The translations under genes were made by a program, and so were the position numbers. The notes under the pieces are model-generated. The model did no database searches, was not told the DNA's origin, and saw only the letters and a program-made list of their open reading frames with translations. A stretch of 64,000 bases of DNA from Candidatus Micrarchaeota archaeon (GTDB taxonomy: Archaea > Micrarchaeota > Micrarchaeia > Anstonellales > J096): contig WAMF01000001.1 of assembly GCA_015522475.1 (NCBI GenBank), positions 36,054 to 100,053 of the forward strand, read 5' to 3'. This document shows positions 6,868 to 57,181 of the stretch, in pieces (the first letter of the stretch is position 1; every line of letters starts with the position of its first letter).

Positions 6868-6965
6868 CCCGCCGTAGCTCAACGGTAGAGCGCCCGGCTG
6901 TAGTTTGTCGCCGCGAAGGCTAAGTGGTTACCGGGAGGTTGGCGGTTCAAATCCGCCCGGCGGGA
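6868..6965 (+). tRNA. tRNA-Tyr (anticodon GUA) with ~26-nt intron in the anticodon loop
   Basis: Acceptor CCCGCCG/CGGCGGG has the C1:G72 pair diagnostic of archaeal/eukaryal tRNA-Tyr, with A73. D-arm GCTC-AACGGTA-GAGC; anticodon stem CCCGG/CCGGG with loop CTGTAG^(intron TTTGTCGCCGCGAAGGCTAAGTGGTT)A; T-arm GGCGG-TTCAAAT-CCGCC. Confidence 0.75.
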
Positions 6966-14085: not shown

Positions 14086-15423
14086 TTAAAGTTTAAGCTC
14101 CGAATGCTCTAAGGAAGGCTTTAACTTCCATACAACGAACGCTGTAGAAATCATATTGAGCTGCGTCAAGTTAAAGAATATACGCAAATTTATAGGCAGG
14201 GATTTAGCCTTATAAGGAGAAAGAGTTGTTATGGGCTGCCTCTCTTTTATAGAGCGGATAATTTCTTGGATTGTAGGCCTTCGCCTTTCATAAACAACGC
14301 CATTCCAACCCTGCCCTAATAGAGAAGTGTGGGCTGAGGATGGCCAAGGATTGATGTGGCTATCGGGTTCAAAGAACACAACCTTTCCCCATGCTCTCCA
14401 TTCATCAGCAGCAAATATCTCAAGCTCTCCTTCGCGAGAAGGGCTCATAAGATTAACATCTTCGGCATTTAAGTTACCCTCTAGGGTTGACCCTTTCTTT
14501 GGAATAATTTTTTTCTTTGCTCTCTCTAGAAGGTGTTTTACAAAAGCCTCCATCCATAGGTTTGAAAAAGTAACTTTGGACTTAGCAGCGTCGGCATTAA
14601 ATATTGAAATAGCATCTGCCCTTTCAACAAGAGCTTCTATGAGGGCTCGGGCTCTAGGCATGTAGTGAAAAATGCCTGTTGCGTGAAACTTGCCAAATAT
14701 TCTCGTGCCATAAAAAGGATGTGGAATACCCACAGCTACATCTTTGTGATCTAGAAGCCAAAGAAGCATATCCTCTCCTCTTGTCCTGGGAGGTAGAGGA
14801 GGATACAACTTGTTAAATGGTGTTAGCTTAACCACGTCTGAACAAAATGTTTTTGCAAGCTCGGCATTAGGGAACCAATGAAGCACATGAAAGCCGTCAA
14901 TAACACTGCCTATGTTGTACGTGAATTCAGCCGCATAGCCCTTATCTATGTTAAAAGCTCTTAGGAATTTCCTCATAGCTTCTATTCTGACTATTTCCAT
15001 GTTGTTGTGAAAGCCGGAGAGATCAAAATCTATGTGGTGAAACGCTAGGTCTAAAACTACAAGTTCATAGGGGGATAAGCCATCGTCCACAAGGCGCTTT
15101 CCGGCAAAGGAACGCGTATGACCGTGAAGATGGACAAGGTAAAGAGAGCTCGGTTTAGTTAAAGCTGTTAATTCTACCTCGTCAAGTATATCACTAAGGC
15201 TATACTTAGGAAAGGCAAGATAAGTTGCAGGGCCATAGCCCACTGGGCTCATCTCGAGAAATAAAAAATTTGCTGCCCTTTCTTTAATTTTGGCCAGCAC
15301 AAAAAAATTAGACTGCCTAGCATTTCCTCTGTTGAATAGATAAAGATGGCCCTTCATTCGAATAGGCACTCTGTGAAAGCCCCGTTCCTTCATTCCTGCT
15401 ATGATCTCTTCCTTCAGAGACAT
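14086..15423 (-). CDS. hypothetical protein, possible metal-dependent hydrolase
   Basis: 445 aa with His-rich motifs (VHLHGHT...DDG; AFHHIDFD). Family not recognised. Confidence 0.35.
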   Translation of the reverse strand: MSLKEEIIAGMKERGFHRVPIRMKGHLYLFNRGNARQSNFFVLAKIKERAANFLFLEMSPVGYGPATYLAFPKYSLSDILDEVELTALTKPSSLYLVHLHGHTRSFAGKRLVDDGLSPYELVVLDLAFHHIDFDLSGFHNNMEIVRIEAMRKFLRAFNIDKGYAAEFTYNIGSVIDGFHVLHWFPNAELAKTFCSDVVKLTPFNKLYPPLPPRTRGEDMLLWLLDHKDVAVGIPHPFYGTRIFGKFHATGIFHYMPRARALIEALVERADAISIFNADAAKSKVTFSNLWMEAFVKHLLERAKKKIIPKKGSTLEGNLNAEDVNLMSPSREGELEIFAADEWRAWGKVVFFEPDSHINPWPSSAHTSLLGQGWNGVVYERRRPTIQEIIRSIKERQPITTLSPYKAKSLPINLRIFFNLTQLNMISTAFVVWKLKPSLEHSELKL

Positions 15424-15570: not shown

Positions 15571-16734
15571 TTATTTTTTAGCGGCGCTTACAAGCTCTAC
15601 GGCGTCGAGGTGTTTAAGCACATGGTCTTTGGCTAAACGCATTTTCGTCCTCACATCAATCCCATAGAGGAGATGCTTAGCTATGTCGCTGTGAATCTTC
15701 ATGGCAAAATCGTAGACGGTTGCATCCTTGGGCAGAAGGAAACAATCGGGCAATACCCTCCCCTTACTATCGACGAGTTTACTGCCAGCAGGATAAACGG
15801 CCTTATAACCAAGAACGCCGAAGACCGCATGCTCAATGACTTGTTGGACACCTGTACTGCCAAAGGGTTTGAGGACATTCTCGCGTATAGCGTTAAGAGC
15901 AGCTTCCTGCTCCGCTGAGAGTTTGCCCTTTACTTCGAAATCCGACTCGCCGGGCACGTAGTCTATGAGGCCGGCCTTAGCAGCCCTCTTCAACGCCAGC
16001 TCGGCAACTGCTGAAACCGGAATCATATCGTACTTATCTTTTAACCGCTCATAGTTGGCTTTACCCTCCTTTGTGTCCACTTTATTGGCGGCGGTAACTA
16101 TAGCTTTTGTTTTCTGCCTCAAAAACCTCGCTACTTCGAGAAGGTCTTGCCAAGAGGCTATTGGGCCAAAGCGCTCTACGGTTTCCTCCGCTATACCTTC
16201 ATCGACGCGGAAGCTACTCAGAATCTCGACGAGTACATCTGCATCCTTCATGCCCGAGCGTTTAAGCCTCTCCATCCTATCGCGGTTCCTCTCTATAACG
16301 CCCTTATACCAGTAGTCAAGCTCGTCTTCGAGGAAGGCTATGTCCTTCTCAGGGTCGTGGCTGCCAGGCTCGACGGCATTACCCTCTTCATCCGTCGAAC
16401 CGCTCATATCTACAACGTGGATGAGTGCTTCCGCTTGGTTTAAATTGTTGAGGAATTGATTGCCTAAGCCTCTGCCTTCGTGGGCTCCGGGAATTAGGCC
16501 AGCGACGTCTATGATTTTAACGGGAACGAAGCGCCATGGGCCCGCTATATAACCCGTGCGCGGCGTCGCCTTAACGCCGAATTCGGGGCCTATTTCCTTA
16601 ACGCGGACATAAGCAGTGCCGACGTTGGGTTCAATAGTTGTGAAAGGTCGGCTGTTTATCTCGACAGTGGCCATAGTAACCGCTGCAAAGAACGTGCTTT
16701 TGCCAGATGATGGTTTCCCAACGAGGCCGAGCAT
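15571..16734 (-). CDS. Obg-like/YchF-family P-loop GTPase with TGS-like C-terminus
   Basis: GKPSSGKST P-loop, FTTIEPNVG switch motif, DVAGLIPGA (G3), NK.D (G4). Confidence 0.65.
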   Translation of the reverse strand: MLGLVGKPSSGKSTFFAAVTMATVEINSRPFTTIEPNVGTAYVRVKEIGPEFGVKATPRTGYIAGPWRFVPVKIIDVAGLIPGAHEGRGLGNQFLNNLNQAEALIHVVDMSGSTDEEGNAVEPGSHDPEKDIAFLEDELDYWYKGVIERNRDRMERLKRSGMKDADVLVEILSSFRVDEGIAEETVERFGPIASWQDLLEVARFLRQKTKAIVTAANKVDTKEGKANYERLKDKYDMIPVSAVAELALKRAAKAGLIDYVPGESDFEVKGKLSAEQEAALNAIRENVLKPFGSTGVQQVIEHAVFGVLGYKAVYPAGSKLVDSKGRVLPDCFLLPKDATVYDFAMKIHSDIAKHLLYGIDVRTKMRLAKDHVLKHLDAVELVSAAKK

Positions 16735-16828
16735 ACCTCAGACTTCCCTAGAAGGTTTTTTAAGCTAAGATGGCTCTAGTCTGGGAACTGCAACAGGTTT
16801 AAAAATTAGCTTTCTTATAAACGCTACA

Positions 16829-17752
16829 ATGCAACTCTACGACAAGCTTAACCAAGCGTGGAAGCAAACAGCTAAGATAGTGCTGGGCGACGAAGTAGGT
16901 GAGTTGAAGGATTATGAAGGGCTACTTAAGCAACACATGGAAGGTGAGCTTATAGAGAAGCGCTCAGCCATAAGTGAAGAAGCTGTAAGCGTGCCAGCTG
17001 AATACAAAGCCCTGCCCGTCGCTTCTATGAGTGAGTTAGATAAACTGAGAAGGGTTAAGCTGGACATCAACGACATAAAGGACATAGATACGATTGTGGA
17101 GAGGCTAAAGGAAGAGTTTGTTTATGTCGGTAATGTGGCCTTGGGAAAGAGCAACTTTGTTGAAAAGAGCAGTAAAGTTGTCGACAGTCAATATATATAC
17201 AACAGCTATGATGTGTTCAACTCTAGGTTCGTTATGTATGGAAGCCATATTCGTAATGAGAAGTATGTCTTCGGTGTAAGAGATGGAGGAAATGTTGAGT
17301 TCGCCATTCTATGTAGAGGGTATGGGGGCACTAAAGAAGCGGCATCCATACGAGTATTTGAAAGCGTAGTCATAGGCTTTTCTAAAAACACATACTACGG
17401 CGCTGTTTGCACATATTGCAATGAGGTCTTCTTCTCCTTCTTCCAGTACGGCGCCCGCTACACCATAGGCAACCTCCAGCATACCCCCGACAAGTATAAG
17501 CAGATAAAGGCGGCTTTGCTCGAAGAGATTAGAGATAATCTTAAGGCTAAGAAACATGTAAGCATCTTTGACTTATTCATGGAAGGCACAGAAGAGCAAG
17601 AAGAGACAAAGCGCATTGTACAGGAGAGATTAGCGGGCCAATCCTATGAAATTCCCTTTGATAAAAAGCCCATAGAGGAGGCATTTACTGCCACAAGTAA
17701 GCTGTTGTTGGGTAAGCCTCTAGAGGACGGCATAGATGCATACGAGAAGTGA
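16829..17752 (+). CDS. N-terminal half-homolog of the repeat-module protein (split paralog of 20002..21609)
   Basis: Colinear with residues 1-300 of ORF 20002..21609 (MxLYxKLNQAWKQTxKIVLGDEVGEL...IGNLQ..DKY.Q.KAALLE.IR..LKAKK); ~85% DNA identity over the first ~60 nt. Confidence 0.5.
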   Translation: MQLYDKLNQAWKQTAKIVLGDEVGELKDYEGLLKQHMEGELIEKRSAISEEAVSVPAEYKALPVASMSELDKLRRVKLDINDIKDIDTIVERLKEEFVYVGNVALGKSNFVEKSSKVVDSQYIYNSYDVFNSRFVMYGSHIRNEKYVFGVRDGGNVEFAILCRGYGGTKEAASIRVFESVVIGFSKNTYYGAVCTYCNEVFFSFFQYGARYTIGNLQHTPDKYKQIKAALLEEIRDNLKAKKHVSIFDLFMEGTEEQEETKRIVQERLAGQSYEIPFDKKPIEEAFTATSKLLLGKPLEDGIDAYEK

Positions 17753-18447
17753 CTTACAAAGAAAACGCCTACTACGATTATGAGCCCGTGAAGAGCGCGT
17801 TTATGGGCTGGGTAGGGCACATGAATTATAAGCTTGACAATCTTCCAAGAAAGGTTGTGGAAAGGACTTTTATAACTGAAAGAGAAGGGAAGGTCTTAGG
17901 TAGTAGCGTGCACATAAAAGAAGAAGAGGTGGATGAACTTTCTTTTAAAGACATAGAAAACTTGAAGAGGATAATCTCCAGAGTTTACACTATAACATAC
18001 CATTCAAAGGATGACCTCTCTTCAAACTTTGACGATGCCGCCTCTGTGTATGGGTCGAGGGATGTCTACAGGAGTCCAATAACGATGTTCAGCAAAAAAT
18101 GCGCTTACTCCATTTTTCCTAGGAATAGCAGTTACCAATTCGGCTCATCCCTCGTATTGCAAAGCGAGTTCGGCATAAACGTGTACATGAGCGATAACAT
18201 CAAACGCGGCTTTGAAGTGGATAACTCCGCTCACAGCAGCGACATCTACTTCAGCCATAACTGCGAAGGCAGCTCCGATGTGATGTTCTGCTTTAACGGG
18301 AAAGGGCAGCGTAATAGCATAGGACATAATCAGCTGGAGAGGAGCAAGTACTTGGAAATAAAGGCCGCCCTGCTCGAGCAGATATGGAGCGAGCTCAATG
18401 CAAAGAAGGATTTCCGCTACGGCATTTATTCGCTGGTGAGGGAGTAA
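17749..18447 (+). CDS. C-terminal half-homolog of the repeat-module protein (split paralog)
   Basis: GTG start overlapping the upstream stop (GTGA); aligns to the C-terminal module of 20002..21609 (SSDIYFSH..SS.VMF....G.R..IG...L...KYL.IKAALLEQI). Confidence 0.5.
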   Translation: MTYKENAYYDYEPVKSAFMGWVGHMNYKLDNLPRKVVERTFITEREGKVLGSSVHIKEEEVDELSFKDIENLKRIISRVYTITYHSKDDLSSNFDDAASVYGSRDVYRSPITMFSKKCAYSIFPRNSSYQFGSSLVLQSEFGINVYMSDNIKRGFEVDNSAHSSDIYFSHNCEGSSDVMFCFNGKGQRNSIGHNQLERSKYLEIKAALLEQIWSELNAKKDFRYGIYSLVRE

Positions 18448-18471
18448 AGGAGCAAAATAGGAAAAGCATTT

Positions 18472-18783
18472 TCATTCATCCAGATTCTTAACCCTTAACC
18501 AGTTCTTAACAGATAGAAGAACGGCTTTCCTCAACCTCTCTTTTACAGGGCCGAAACTGCTTGAATCGCCCATCCATTTTACAGAGCCCTGTTCGACGCT
18601 GATGATGCCAGCACCTAAAAAGTCGAGTTCATCTAACGGCCTATGGACTTTTTCAGCATATTTACCCGCTAATACGCCATGATTCGGCGCTTCCTTAAAA
18701 GGAAGAAGAAATATTAAAAGGTGGTTTTGAGTTCTCAGTAAGAGAAAAAGGTGTTTACCATTCTTTTCCACCTTACCTTTCAC
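18472..18783 (-). CDS. hypothetical protein
   Basis: 103-aa ORF; no motifs recognised. Confidence 0.3.
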   Translation of the reverse strand: MKGKVEKNGKHLFLLLRTQNHLLIFLLPFKEAPNHGVLAGKYAEKVHRPLDELDFLGAGIISVEQGSVKWMGDSSSFGPVKERLRKAVLLSVKNWLRVKNLDE

Positions 18784-18986
18784 ATCTAGTGGTTGGAACT
18801 TCTCTTGGTCGATTGGGCTAGATGAAGAATCAAACAGCGGGGTTGATAGATCGTGGTTGTTAAAGGACTGTGTAGACCGGGAAAGAGCAGCTAATTTATG
18901 TGAGGGGGGACGGCGATATGTATGTATATATAATCCGCGGGAACCGAAAGCTTTATAAATCTGCTCTAGAGGCTATTGACAGCTGT

Positions 18987-19607
18987 CTAATGGTTTTTCT
19001 GCTTTTCTGCGTCGGCCTTGGCTAAAAGCTCCCTGGCAAAAGAAAAGCGTTGAATCAAACCAATCAAGGCAATCGCTGCAAGAACATATAAGCCAACGAC
19101 GTTGAGGTCAAAACCACAGCAGGACGGCCAAAAAGGCCTAAAGAGGAGCGTAAAAAAGACAATTAATAAGCGCTCAGCCCTCTCGCCAATAGCAGGCCAA
19201 TCGGGATTGCCAAGGGGTACAACCATCTCTGCCCGCGCTTTAGCGAAAGCGACGAGAAGGGAAAGCACAGCCGCAAAAAATGCTGCTGTGGGATAACCAG
19301 CTAAAGCAAAACCTGCAAGTATAGTAACTTCCTGCACTTTATCAGTGAACGCATCCCAGTAGGAGCCAAACAGCGTCTTTTTGTTGTTGGCCTTTGCAAT
19401 TGCACCGTCAATATTGTCAACAACGGACGAGAGAATAACAAATAAAGCAGCCCATAGCCACGCATGCACAAAGATGAAGTATGCTGCTATAAAAGCTAGA
19501 GGGTATGCCCAAGCAGTAACGTGGTTGGGGTCAAAACACGAGAGGCGCTTACCCAAAGGAAAGAAAACGTGCTTATTCAGCCAGTCACGCATGAGAGAGC
19601 CAAGCAT
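18987..19607 (-). CDS. CDP-alcohol phosphatidyltransferase family protein
   Basis: Multi-TM; D..DG.AK....T.FGSYWDAFTDKV matches the CDP-OH_P_transf motif D(x2)DG(x2)AR(x8)G(x3)D(x3)D. Confidence 0.7.
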   Translation of the reverse strand: MLGSLMRDWLNKHVFFPLGKRLSCFDPNHVTAWAYPLAFIAAYFIFVHAWLWAALFVILSSVVDNIDGAIAKANNKKTLFGSYWDAFTDKVQEVTILAGFALAGYPTAAFFAAVLSLLVAFAKARAEMVVPLGNPDWPAIGERAERLLIVFFTLLFRPFWPSCCGFDLNVVGLYVLAAIALIGLIQRFSFARELLAKADAEKQKNH

Positions 19608-19737
19608 AGTCTGCTTAGAACAGAAAGATTAAAAAACAAAGAGCGAATCATGCAGCGAAGAATGTCACAAGTGTGTGTCACAACGTGGTAGTTAAAGGGA
19701 AGCGAAAGGATTAAAAAGAATTTTGCTCCTATATTTC

Positions 19738-19906
19738 ATGGGGCTAAACCAGGGGGTTGCCCGTAATGGGCTAAGAAGCGCCTCTAGGCGCTCACTCTGC
19801 TTCGCGGAGTTCGCGGGCCAGACTTGGCCTGCTTACGGCGCTTCGCGCGTCGTGCCAAGTGTCCTCCCTTCGGGTTGAGGACCACCTCCTGGGGCCTAAC
19901 CTTCTT
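19738..19906. ncRNA. candidate structured non-coding RNA (GC-rich island)
   Basis: ~170-nt, ~65% GC block in otherwise AT-rich intergenic space with no ORF; several perfect hairpins and termini that can pair. Identity unknown. Confidence 0.3.
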
Positions 19907-20001
19907 TTAAGCTTTCTTTCCAGTCGACTAAATATGACTAAACTTTCATTGATCCTTCGCCGCTGGCATAAGTTATTAAAGTTTAATCGCCAAAAACCAG
20001 C

Positions 20002-21609
20002 GTGACCGAGCTCTACGAAAAGCTAAACCAAGCGTGGAAACAAACGTGTAAGATAGTGCTAGGCGATGAGGTAGGCGAGCTGAGCGAGTATAAGCCATGG
20101 TTGGAAGAAGTCTTCAAGGAGTATAGCTCTCCAGAGTACGGCCCTTGGAAAAAGGAAGTGAGCTCAGCCTTGACGGAGAAAGCCGTTTACGTTTTTGCCC
20201 CTTTCTATGAGAAGGGAGCTAAGTTCGCTGAGTATGATCTATTAAAGGAGAAAAAGATAGAGCCTTTATCGTTAGATGAGATAAAGGACATAGACTCTAT
20301 TTTAGAGGCATGGAAAGAGCGCTGGTGTTATAAGGCCAGTGTCGTCCTAGGCAAAAGCTATCATGTAGAAGAAAGCGATTCCGTGTTTAATTCAAGCTTT
20401 GTGTTGGGCTCCTATGCTGTAGCAGAGTCTAGCTACGTGGCTTATTCCATATGGGTAAGGAATGGTGGAAGATATATATTCGGTAGTGGAGGCGGGCCGG
20501 GTTTTAAGTTTGCCATACGTTCAGGATACGGCGCTGGCTTCAATCGCGGCATGGGCACATACTTTTTCGCTAACGTAAGCGACGTTTACTTTAGCCACTA
20601 CATCTTTGACAGCAGCGAGGTCATGTTCTCCTTTAATCAGATAGGTAAGCACTACATCATAGGCAATCTTCAGCTAACAAAGGATAAATACATGCAAACA
20701 AAAGCGGCTTTACTTGAGCAGATAAGGGCTGAGTTAAAAGCAAAGAAACGTTTTCCTTCTCTCATGGAGTTAGTGGCTGAAAATAAAGCTAAGCTTCTCC
20801 CTATCCCAGAAGAAGAGCTGAAGAAGATAAGTGTAGAGGAAGAGAAGTGCGATATGAAGCCCATAGAGGCGGGATTTGAGCGCACAACAAAGCTTTTGCT
20901 AGGAGAGAGCTTTACTTTAGATGAGCTGAAGGGCTATCTCATGGGGAAGCGAGCCGTTCCTCCTCAGCTCATAGAAACGCCCAGCGGAGCTAAGGCTGTG
21001 TACTACTCCGTTCTTTATCACACATCTTGGCCTAGTGACATAAACCTCAGGATCATTATTGACAAGGAAGCTAATGCGGCAGCAACTGTAACACTGGAAG
21101 AAAGCTCTATAAAAGAGCTCAGGAGTATTCGTCAAAGTATCGGGAGGATCGCCTACATATCCCAAAGCCTTTCATATAAGAGTATGAATATCTGCAGCGT
21201 TCCCATATCTTTCAACTCAAGGGATGTCGCATATATCTTTGACACTACAGAGAATAAAGTGGCAGCCTATAATTACGTGGGCAGCCCCTCTTCCAGCTAC
21301 ATCTTCGGTAGCTTTTTCACCACCAACTCTTCCTTTGTCATAAACAGCGACGTAAATGAGAACCTGCAGCGCGCTATAGAAGCAGACCGCTGCTCAAACA
21401 GTAGCGACATTTATTTCAGCCACGATATAGACGGCTCAACAGAAGTTATGTTCTCCCAGCACTTGAAAGGCGCGCGCTACACCATTGGCAACTTAGCCCT
21501 TGATAAGGAAAAATACCTCTCCATAAAAGCCTCCCTACTCAGCCAAGTCGTGAATGAATTAAAAAGCAAAGGCAAGCTGCACTTCGGCGTGAGGGAGCTA
21601 GGTGTATAG
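20002..21609 (+). CDS. repeat-module protein of unrecognised family (fused paralog)
   Basis: 535 aa; two tandem modules each consisting of S/V-rich beta-strand-like repeats capped by the helix KY..IKAALLEQI..ELKAKK; no match to families I recognise. Confidence 0.55.
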   Translation: MTELYEKLNQAWKQTCKIVLGDEVGELSEYKPWLEEVFKEYSSPEYGPWKKEVSSALTEKAVYVFAPFYEKGAKFAEYDLLKEKKIEPLSLDEIKDIDSILEAWKERWCYKASVVLGKSYHVEESDSVFNSSFVLGSYAVAESSYVAYSIWVRNGGRYIFGSGGGPGFKFAIRSGYGAGFNRGMGTYFFANVSDVYFSHYIFDSSEVMFSFNQIGKHYIIGNLQLTKDKYMQTKAALLEQIRAELKAKKRFPSLMELVAENKAKLLPIPEEELKKISVEEEKCDMKPIEAGFERTTKLLLGESFTLDELKGYLMGKRAVPPQLIETPSGAKAVYYSVLYHTSWPSDINLRIIIDKEANAAATVTLEESSIKELRSIRQSIGRIAYISQSLSYKSMNICSVPISFNSRDVAYIFDTTENKVAAYNYVGSPSSSYIFGSFFTTNSSFVINSDVNENLQRAIEADRCSNSSDIYFSHDIDGSTEVMFSQHLKGARYTIGNLALDKEKYLSIKASLLSQVVNELKSKGKLHFGVRELGV

Positions 21610-50298: not shown

Positions 50299-50337
50299 AT
50301 TCTCACCCAATTTTGATTCCTCGCCAGTGAAAAGTGA

Positions 50338-50440
50338 TGGGGCCGCCGAGAGTTTCAGGGCCAAGCACAAAGCAAAGCCCTTTTGAACTCGGGTTACGGG
50401 CACCCCAAGCCCGCAGGCTCCCAGGCTACCCCACGGCCCC
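50338..50440 (-). tRNA. candidate tRNA-Pro (anticodon GGG) with ~30-nt insertion in the T-loop (non-canonical intron)
   Basis: Minus strand: acceptor GGGGCCG/CGGCCCC+A73, D-arm GGGT-AGCCTGGGA-GCCT, anticodon stem CGGGC/GCCCG with loop TTGGGGT (U33, G37), T-stem CCGAG/CTCGG, T-loop TTCAAA followed by AGGGCTTTGCTTTGTGCTTGGCCCTGAAACT inserted before the 3' T-stem strand. Confidence 0.5.
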
Positions 50441-50460
50441 ATCGAGCGCGATTGCTAGCC

Positions 50461-57082: not shown

Positions 57083-57169
57083 AGCAGGGGTCGCCAAGCC
57101 TGGTCAACGGCGTCAGGTTCAGGGCCTGATCCCTTAGTGGGTTCGTGGGTTCGAATCCCACCCCCTGCA
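57083..57169 (+). tRNA. tRNA-Leu (anticodon CAG)
   Basis: Acceptor GCAGGGG/CCCCTGC+A73, anticodon stem TCAGG/CCTGA with loop TTCAGGG, long variable arm, T-arm GTGGG-TTCGAAT-CCCAC. Confidence 0.85.
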
Positions 57170-57181
57170 CTTCTCTTTTTT
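57170..57181 (+). terminator. oligo-T tract after tRNA-Leu
   Basis: cttctcttttttt directly 3' of the tRNA; archaeal terminators are T-rich. Confidence 0.4.

Follow-up and report, generated by a model that had tools for sequence, protein, structure and literature searches.

Fused and split forms of an unannotated two-module protein family in Micrarchaeota, and a fused-type gene that was probably broken by a small lesion

The window examined here is a stretch of 64,000 nucleotides (64 kb) from a Candidatus Micrarchaeota archaeon (contig WAMF01000001.1). It contains two loci of one protein family, at 16829-18447 and 20002-21609, and only these two. The first locus consists of two open reading frames (ORFs), referred to below as the N-ORF and the C-ORF, which are joined by a GTGA stop/start overlap at 17749-17752; the second is a single, fused ORF. 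The genes and their putative promoter elements are as follows.

16829 to 17752, plus strand: N-ORF of the broken paralogue (307 aa, identical to P0044), matching profile positions 5-300; covers module 1, the linker and module 2 up to halfway through its second helix
17749 to 18447, plus strand: C-ORF of the broken paralogue (232 aa), matching profile positions 307-523; the remainder of module 2
20002 to 21609, plus strand: intact fused two-module member (535 aa, P0001), supported by the ORF, by full-length homologues of ~510-555 aa and by a predicted model
16798 to 16807, plus strand: TATA-like box TTTAAAAATT, ~25-30 nt 5' of the ATG at 16829, read from the sequence; a putative promoter, presumably of a leaderless mRNA
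19973 to 19981, plus strand: TATA-like box TTATTAAAG, ~25 nt 5' of the GTG at 20002, read from the sequence; likewise a putative promoter

The coordinates and lengths of these ORFs, the GTGA overlap and the colinearity of the pair with the 535-aa ORF, all described in an initial annotation of the sequence, were recovered from the ORF list and by BLASTP. The N-ORF was 43% identical to the fused protein over 314 columns (E=6e-57) and the C-ORF 38% over 170 columns (E=5e-29); the two paralogues are ~37% identical. The DNA identity of the first 60 nt of the two genes was 82%, slightly below the ~85% given at first. Residues 81-251 of the fused protein also matched the C-ORF (E=8e-23) and residues 288-523 the N-ORF (E=1e-10). 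Since module 1 thus matches the C-ORF and module 2 the N-ORF, the internal duplication that had been proposed for each protein is real. The fused gene is 100% identical to P0001 and aligned with the family profile colinearly over its full length (positions 4-522, 654 bits); it is an ordinary intact family member. The window copies carry the family motifs W12, IKDID, SSD.YF.H, MF.FN and IGN as well as the capping helix.

The family was defined by searches of sequence and model libraries, which agreed with the earlier statement that no known family could be recognised. The three window ORFs gave zero matches to Pfam and NCBIfam, the 44 members of the family alignment yielded scattered noise only against Pfam at E≤1, model scans with PADLOC and PHROGs were negative, and comparison of the family profile with PDB sequences returned noise only (nothing at E<0.48). 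A word-indexed homologue search produced 45 clusters, every one of them labelled 'hypothetical protein' and with Candidatus Micrarchaeota as the sole organism names; repeating it with a 69-sequence alignment gave the same 43 proteins and none new. In an exhaustive profile search over 1.84 billion representatives (50% identity), 2111 proteins passed E≤1e-3; of these, 822 reached E≤1e-10 and 345 reached E≤1e-30. The best 150 matches, which were those listed, were with few exceptions 515-555 aa long and aligned end to end. A scan of one genome per GTDB species, with the IKDID motif as the pattern, confirmed 214 loci, and all of the best 80 listed were in metagenome-assembled genomes (MAGs) of Micrarchaeota/Micrarchaeia, often with 3-4 loci per MAG. 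More divergent members may exist beyond the phylum, as the scan was keyed to this motif. No relatives were found in phage, plasmid and IMG/VR collections, and a mobile-element, viral or anti-phage defence family was rejected on these searches together with the negative PADLOC and PHROGs scans. A literature search found no description of the family or its locus. Overall, the data define an unannotated protein family with two homologous modules per protein that occurs in fused and split forms. Its fold class is already known; the family, its head domain, the fused/split two-module organisation and the conserved locus described below are undescribed in the libraries and papers searched.

The architecture of the protein was derived from the family alignment and from an AlphaFold2 (AF2) model of the 535-aa protein, built from 44 sequences (predicted local distance difference test, pLDDT, 82.6; predicted template-modelling score, pTM, 0.85). 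In the model each module consists of an alpha/beta head, ~110 residues of short strands recurring every 12 residues, and a helix of ~22 residues. The amphipathic helix that had been said to end each module corresponds to the long helices at residues 227-248 and 502-523. The features of the fused gene are listed below.

20002 to 20337, plus strand: module 1 head, residues 1-112, helices and a small sheet (AF2 model)
20272 to 20301, plus strand: motif 'LDEIKDIDSI' of the module 1 head with the invariant L89, D96 and D98 (family alignment; family consensus '..PL.INEIKDIDSI..')
20338 to 20676, plus strand: module 1 beta-solenoid, residues 113-225, terminating in ..SDVYFSH.., ..EVMFSFN.. and ..YIIGN.. 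(AF2 model)
20680 to 20748, plus strand: module 1 capping amphipathic helix KDKYMQTKAALLEQIRAELKAKK, helix 227-248 (AF2 model)
20857 to 21183, plus strand: module 2 head, residues 286-394, with the first helix PIEAGFERTTKLLLG (alignment and AF2 model)
20926 to 20940, plus strand: 'Y..WL'-type helix (LKGYL) of the module 2 head, the site that is broken in the other copy (alignment and AF2 model)
21184 to 21501, plus strand: module 2 beta-solenoid, residues 395-500, with ..SSDIYFSHD.., ..EVMFSQH.. and ..YTIGN.. (alignment, AF2 model and periodicity)
21505 to 21573, plus strand: module 2 capping helix KEKYLSIKASLLSQVVNELKSKG, helix 502-523 (AF2 model)

The repeat length was assessed from 69 diverse members. 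The autocorrelation of Ser/Cys occupancy was 0.70 at lag 6 and 0.58 at lag 12, and that of hydrophobic residues 0.58 at lag 12, 0.45 at lag 24 and 0.13 at lag 18. This 6/12-residue periodicity points to a narrow solenoid whose coils are 12 residues long and bury a small residue at every sixth position. A Foldseek search of PDB with the model of the 535-aa protein, a check proposed with the initial annotation, gave no match that would place it in a known family, and a structural match to the head domain was not found. The number of cysteines per protein varies widely (median 19, range 2-36); the fused window copy has 5 and carries Ser at the ladder positions. As Ser replaces the ladder Cys in the window copies, obligatory metal or iron-sulphur (Fe-S) binding by a Cys ladder was rejected, and these residues are probably packing residues or optional disulfides. 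The proteins are soluble and ~525 aa long, with a median isoelectric point (pI) of 7.1. A secreted or surface protein was rejected, as both a signal peptide and a transmembrane-like segment are absent (maximum KD19 = 1.51), and so was, on the median pI, a DNA mimic or a protein binding DNA by charge.

Several known systems were compared with the family. The beetle antifreeze protein (AFP) of Tenebrio molitor is a secreted beta-helix of 80-120 aa with a TCT ice-binding face and disulfides. The family resembles it in having 12-residue coils with Cys or another small residue at every sixth position, but its members are ~525 aa long and cytoplasmic, contain two modules with a head and a capping helix, and share no sequence similarity with it; the consensus strands (..YFSH../..MFSFN../..IGN..) are without a TxT (TCT) ladder. 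Hexapeptide-repeat left-handed beta-helix (LbH) acyltransferases (Hexapep, PF00132) differ in sequence and periodicity: none of the 44 members matched at E≤1, and the hydrophobic period is 12 and not 18; unlike these enzymes, the family gives no evidence for a trimer or an active site. The curli subunit CsgA forms a secreted amyloid; its repeats are ~20 residues long and carry Gln/Asn ladders. It was rejected on a sequence identity of 3% and on the absence of a Curlin_rpt Pfam match and of a Sec signal peptide, and the solenoids of the family differ from it in being capped by head and helix. SufB and SufD are two paralogues, encoded by neighbouring genes, whose solenoids mediate their pairing; each combines a beta-helix with a helical N-domain and C-terminal helices. 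Their likeness to the family is one of gene logic only, and a SufB/SufD-type Fe-S scaffold was rejected because neither a match to the SUFBD core in Pfam nor a structural match to SufD was obtained.

The distribution of fused and split genes was determined from profile coordinates in the related loci, which yielded 146 fused genes, 25 N-halves and 27 C-halves and so bore out the earlier claim that the family exists in both forms. N-halves span the profile from position 1 to ~252 (ends at ~243-254), and C-halves start at ~270-275 and run to ~524. These canonical halves are always adjacent, in the order N then C, and the split falls in the inter-module linker. The best match in another locus was another half for 24 of the 25 N-halves and 25 of the 27 C-halves, down to 40-55% identity; since halves match halves across loci, the split form is old and conserved. 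The 23 N/C junctions mostly show a 4-nt (ATGA or GTGA) or an 8-nt (ATGnnTGA) overlap and are otherwise ≤13 nt apart, an arrangement expected for translational coupling. As far as sequence can tell, the modules are able to function on separate chains, as these pairs show. They would pack against each other into a pseudo-heterodimer, with the contact probably made by the aromatic sheet faces that are conserved (..YFSH../..MFSFN../..IGN..), and such packing would explain why the fused and two-chain forms are interchangeable. The separate-chain modules and the high pTM of the model support a pseudo-heterodimer, without proving it. Split genes are also known from other DPANN archaea such as Nanoarchaeum equitans, where one protein is encoded by two genes and both forms occur across lineages. 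The canonical halves described here differ from those in staying adjacent, with overlaps of 4-8 nt, and the break in the window differs in being a point lesion. Fused genes standing beside old, coupled half-gene pairs make the family a natural case for the conversion between one-chain and two-chain pseudo-dimers.

The break between the N-ORF and the C-ORF of the window is of another kind. The profile coordinates of the two ORFs place it inside module 2, ~35-45 residues from its start, and not in the inter-module linker. It is the sole internal non-canonical break among ~200 family genes; every other odd-sized family ORF in 91 related loci is cut by the end of the locus. The closest relatives, P0023 (539 aa) and P0015 (543 aa), are intact fused genes. 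Insertion of one G (aagtgGact) restores an ORF of 539 aa, and the restored protein is over its full length 72% identical to P0023, 70.5% to P0015 and 52% to P0035. The nonsynonymous divergence (dN) from P0023 was 0.20 in both halves, at saturated synonymous divergence (dS), and that of the intact paralogue from P0002 was 0.24. The 1.6-kb broken gene is without stops or frameshifts other than at the junction. The site itself was delimited by alignment.

17744 to 17775, plus strand: lesion zone; a TGA (17750-17752) stands on a conserved Trp codon and overlaps the GTG (17749-17751), and one base is missing within ~17751-17771

When the DNA is aligned with that of the intact orthologue, 'TGACTT-ACAAAG' stands opposite 'TGGCTCGATAAAG', which in codons is 'TGA CTT -AC AAA GAA' in the window and 'TGG CTC GAT AAA GAA' in the orthologue. 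The conserved Leu codon follows the TGA, and frame 1 continues with LTKKTP where P0015 has LTKETP; this would favour two lesions, namely a change of TGG to TGA and a one-base deletion 3-21 nt downstream, over deletion of a single G. A programmed -1 frameshift was rejected, as the junction (GAG AAG TGA CTT) is without a slippery X XXY YYZ heptamer, and so was reassignment of TGA, which ends 13 of the 45 long ORFs here; a frameshift follows it in any case.

On balance we consider it probable that a small, recent lesion broke a fused-type gene at 16829-18447 and that the pair is not an evolved fission, this reading being taken jointly with that of the family given above. The lesion is considered recent because both halves still look purified by selection and nothing else is damaged. 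Two intact ORFs are accordingly a sign of a recent lesion rather than a demonstration that both halves function. The window pair had been put forward as an example of functional gene fission, which does not agree with an internal break at 300/307, fused orthologues and a TGA at a conserved Trp combined with a lost base. The related argument that both forms are functional stands in part: function is possible through GTGA coupling and separate-chain modules, but the two long ORFs do not demonstrate it. The split that was flagged in the window is thus mundane. Behind a 'split gene' with two long ORFs there can be a fresh lesion or an artefact, as becomes apparent only when orthologues are compared. 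Two points weigh against the lesion as described. A single G deletion would be the more parsimonious history in number of events, and the three contigs with the break do not count as independent: over 6924 nt, L092 and the window are 100% identical, so that the contigs probably represent the same data. Close strains of the broken copy were sought in a metagenome scan, which yielded one relative only, of 58% identity, and hence no independent check of the lesion.

The last points bear directly on an assembly or consensus artefact, in which the gene would be intact and its defects would stem from a strain-mixture consensus or a local misassembly of the MAG. The source is indeed a MAG, the defects fall within ≤22 nt of an otherwise well-conserved gene, and all contigs with the break are identical. 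We nevertheless regard an artefact as quite unlikely and the lesion as probably real, since the same sequence is found on three contigs of 221, 156 and 50-200 kb, two separate base differences are needed if the Leu after the stop is ancestral, and no long homopolymer lies at the site.

Given a real lesion, an early stage of pseudogene formation and a copy that survives in two-chain form are about equally likely. In the two-chain form, the GTGA overlap, as in canonical pairs, could allow termination-reinitiation to yield both pieces, which could then assemble; the N-ORF would supply the beginning of module 2, its first one and a half helices, in trans. An evolved, functional fission, with the 307-aa and 232-aa products both made via the GTGA and assembling like the fused protein, would be in line with the tolerance of the family for separate chains in its ~25 conserved, translationally coupled N/C pairs, 5 of which have the same GTGA, and with the intactness and low dN of both halves. 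If there were two events, a stop and a deletion only 3-21 nt apart might also reflect selection for in-frame restart. It is rather unlikely all the same: the break lies off the canonical linker and parts the first helix of module 2 from the remainder, it is unique in the family and the orthologues are fused, there is no Shine-Dalgarno-like motif 5-10 nt from the GTG, and no diverged genome shares the break (genome scan, best 80 of 214 loci; metagenome scan).

Alternatively, a redundant copy may have been inactivated so recently that further damage has not yet accrued. A stop on a conserved Trp codon followed by a frameshift, the removal of conserved helices of module 2 by the break, and the presence of at least three other paralogues in the genome (P0001, P0002 and P0035 are in the same MAG) are what such an early pseudogene would show, and the dispersed single copies of this lineage, compared with the arrays found elsewhere, are consistent with reduction of the family. 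It is on the other hand difficult to reconcile with the lack of any other stop or frameshift in 1.6 kb, with an identity to intact orthologues (72%) that equals the 70% of the intact paralogue to its own orthologue, and with the retained promoter-like TATA box. We therefore treat it as possible but unlikely. The MAG in question (GCA_027075965.1) contains the contigs JALTHZ010000012 (L092, the same sequence as the window) and JALTHZ010000017 (L001 and L003). It holds P0001 with the 70%-identical P0002, and the broken copy with the 52%-identical P0035, which means either four paralogues in one genome or a bin composed of two related populations. P0035 adjoins the ATPase described below and P0002 lies elsewhere.

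The genomic neighbourhood was compared across 83 non-redundant related loci, in which same-strand tandem arrays of 2-9 family ORFs are frequent. In 27 of them a family gene has as its immediate neighbour the gene of a ~650-aa ATPase that matches DUF87/HerA, TrwB_AAD_bind and TraG-D_C; the likeness of this ATPase to VirD4, VirB4, TraD and HerA is mainly confined to the Walker A region. The ATPase gene is convergent with the family gene in 18 arrangements, upstream on the same strand in 6 and downstream on the same strand in 5. The gene of a ~247-aa HTH_10 protein immediately precedes the family, on the same strand, in 12 loci, a double AsnC-type regulator is adjacent to the family in 13, and a pyridoxal phosphate (PLP, PALP) enzyme with a transmembrane segment follows the ATPase in 11. 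Adjacency that is kept through changes in orientation suggests a functional link.

The conserved Micrarchaeota locus (for example in L028, L023, L015, L081, L082, L060, L024, L040 and L047) comprises, in this order, the HTH_10 gene, a family array, the convergent ATPase gene and the PLP enzyme gene. The arrays in it mix fused genes and N/C half pairs, and a myo-inositol-1-phosphate synthase and a radical S-adenosylmethionine (SAM) gene are often found upstream. The CDP-alcohol phosphatidyltransferase encoded between the two window copies could share a lipid pathway with genes of this locus. Another arrangement is seen in L004-L008, L062 and L076, which represent two diverged lineages: a single family gene lies within a radical SAM / Memo / AMMECR1 triad, in the order radical SAM, Memo, asparaginase-like gene, small ORF, family gene, AMMECR1.

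It is possible, although doubtful, that the family consists of non-enzymatic binding or scaffold proteins that were diversified by tandem duplication. The multi-copy, co-oriented arrays with their dedicated regulators argue for such proteins, and the ATPase neighbour suggests a partner. The family proteins would act with the adjacent HerA/VirD4-like P-loop ATPase, or as its clients, under the dedicated helix-turn-helix (HTH) regulators. Capping of the solenoids by head and helix argues against open-ended polymerisation. Several observations count against this proposal. The family is known here from sequence and a predicted model, and the packing of the modules on each other comes from pTM alone. 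Adjacency to the ATPase and the regulators could be inherited synteny in small genomes, and the window copies have no neighbouring ATPase or HTH_10 gene, none of the array neighbours being present in the window. Moreover, the family has conserved polar residues (K95/D96/D98 in the head; R182, D194, E460 and H474 in the last coils), which could mean catalysis rather than binding.

The latter point leads to an enzyme, acyl- or nucleotidyl-transferase-like or metal-dependent, that would use either the head K-D-x-D or the R/E/D/H cluster of the solenoid, with module 2 as a degenerate partner. Only module 1 carries the invariant D96 and D98, together with the nearly invariant K95; R182, D194, E460 and H474 are nearly invariant; and the neighbours at times include the PLP enzyme, a radical SAM enzyme or the Memo/AMMECR1 genes. 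We consider an enzyme improbable, since none of the 44 members matched Hexapep or another enzyme family, the coils have 12 and not 18 residues, the head is without a fold match, and up to 9 tandem paralogous ORFs per locus would be unusual for a housekeeping enzyme.

A further step, which we regard as very improbable, would be that the family, the ATPase, the HTH_10 protein and the membrane-anchored PLP enzyme form a previously unrecognised, Micrarchaeota-specific cellular system. If this were true, the co-transcribed paralogous pseudo-dimers could be the building blocks or the cargo of a lineage-specific structure, and the tubular structures of ARMAN/Micrarchaeota or an apparatus for exchange with the Thermoplasmatales host would be candidates. 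Cryo-electron tomography has revealed large cytoplasmic tubular structures of unknown composition in ARMAN/Micrarchaeota cells (PMC4110969).

Irrespective of the function, some Micrarchaeota genomes of ~1 Mb spend up to nine tandem ORFs per locus, at several loci each, on this unnamed family. Micrarchaeota are tiny symbiotic archaea with genomes of about that size. The heavy genomic investment points to something central to their biology, and the family, now that it has been defined and given a phyletic range, a predicted fold and a conserved neighbourhood, is a concrete target for structural and pull-down work.

The surroundings of the two window copies were examined as well. Pfam assigned the neighbours as they had been named at first, that is a YGR210-like Obg GTPase, a CDP-OH_P_transf gene and an Lhr helicase. 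The Obg GTPase gene (15571-16734, minus strand) adjoins the broken copy and is also the immediate neighbour of family genes in L034, L055 and L061; its adjacency at the four loci may be a remnant of ancestral synteny. Two ORFs without a Pfam match flank the locus, one of 445 aa at 14086-15423 (minus strand) and one of 103 aa at 18472-18783 (minus strand), and both are genes in the NCBI record.

The GC-rich, RNA-like island noted earlier was located at 19741-19897 (plus strand, ~157 nt), between the CDP-OH transferase gene and the gene at 20002, and folds better than expected (z=-4.6). Its minimum free energy on the plus strand was -87.1 kcal/mol (z=-4.56), and the minus strand gave z=-2.7. A closed multi-branch structure is predicted; of its six or so hairpins, three are capped by UUCG, and a T-rich run follows. 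The island had no Rfam match at the gathering score or at E≤1, ARAGORN called no tRNA in it with introns allowed, and the 90 related loci contained no homologue besides the identical L092; it is a candidate RNA gene on the basis of the predicted fold. Elsewhere in the window the two tRNA finders disagreed. ARAGORN called a tRNA-Leu(cag) at 57084-57170 (plus strand) that is not on the Rfam gathering list, and Rfam called a 98-nt tRNA at 6868-6965 (plus strand), probably intron-containing, that ARAGORN missed. An unannotated tRNA-Pro(GGG)-like gene at ~50337-50443 (minus strand; fold z=-4.1) has an insertion of ~28-32 nt in the T-loop, a non-canonical intron position. Both programs missed this gene, and with the insert deleted ARAGORN called it as tRNA-Pro(ggg).

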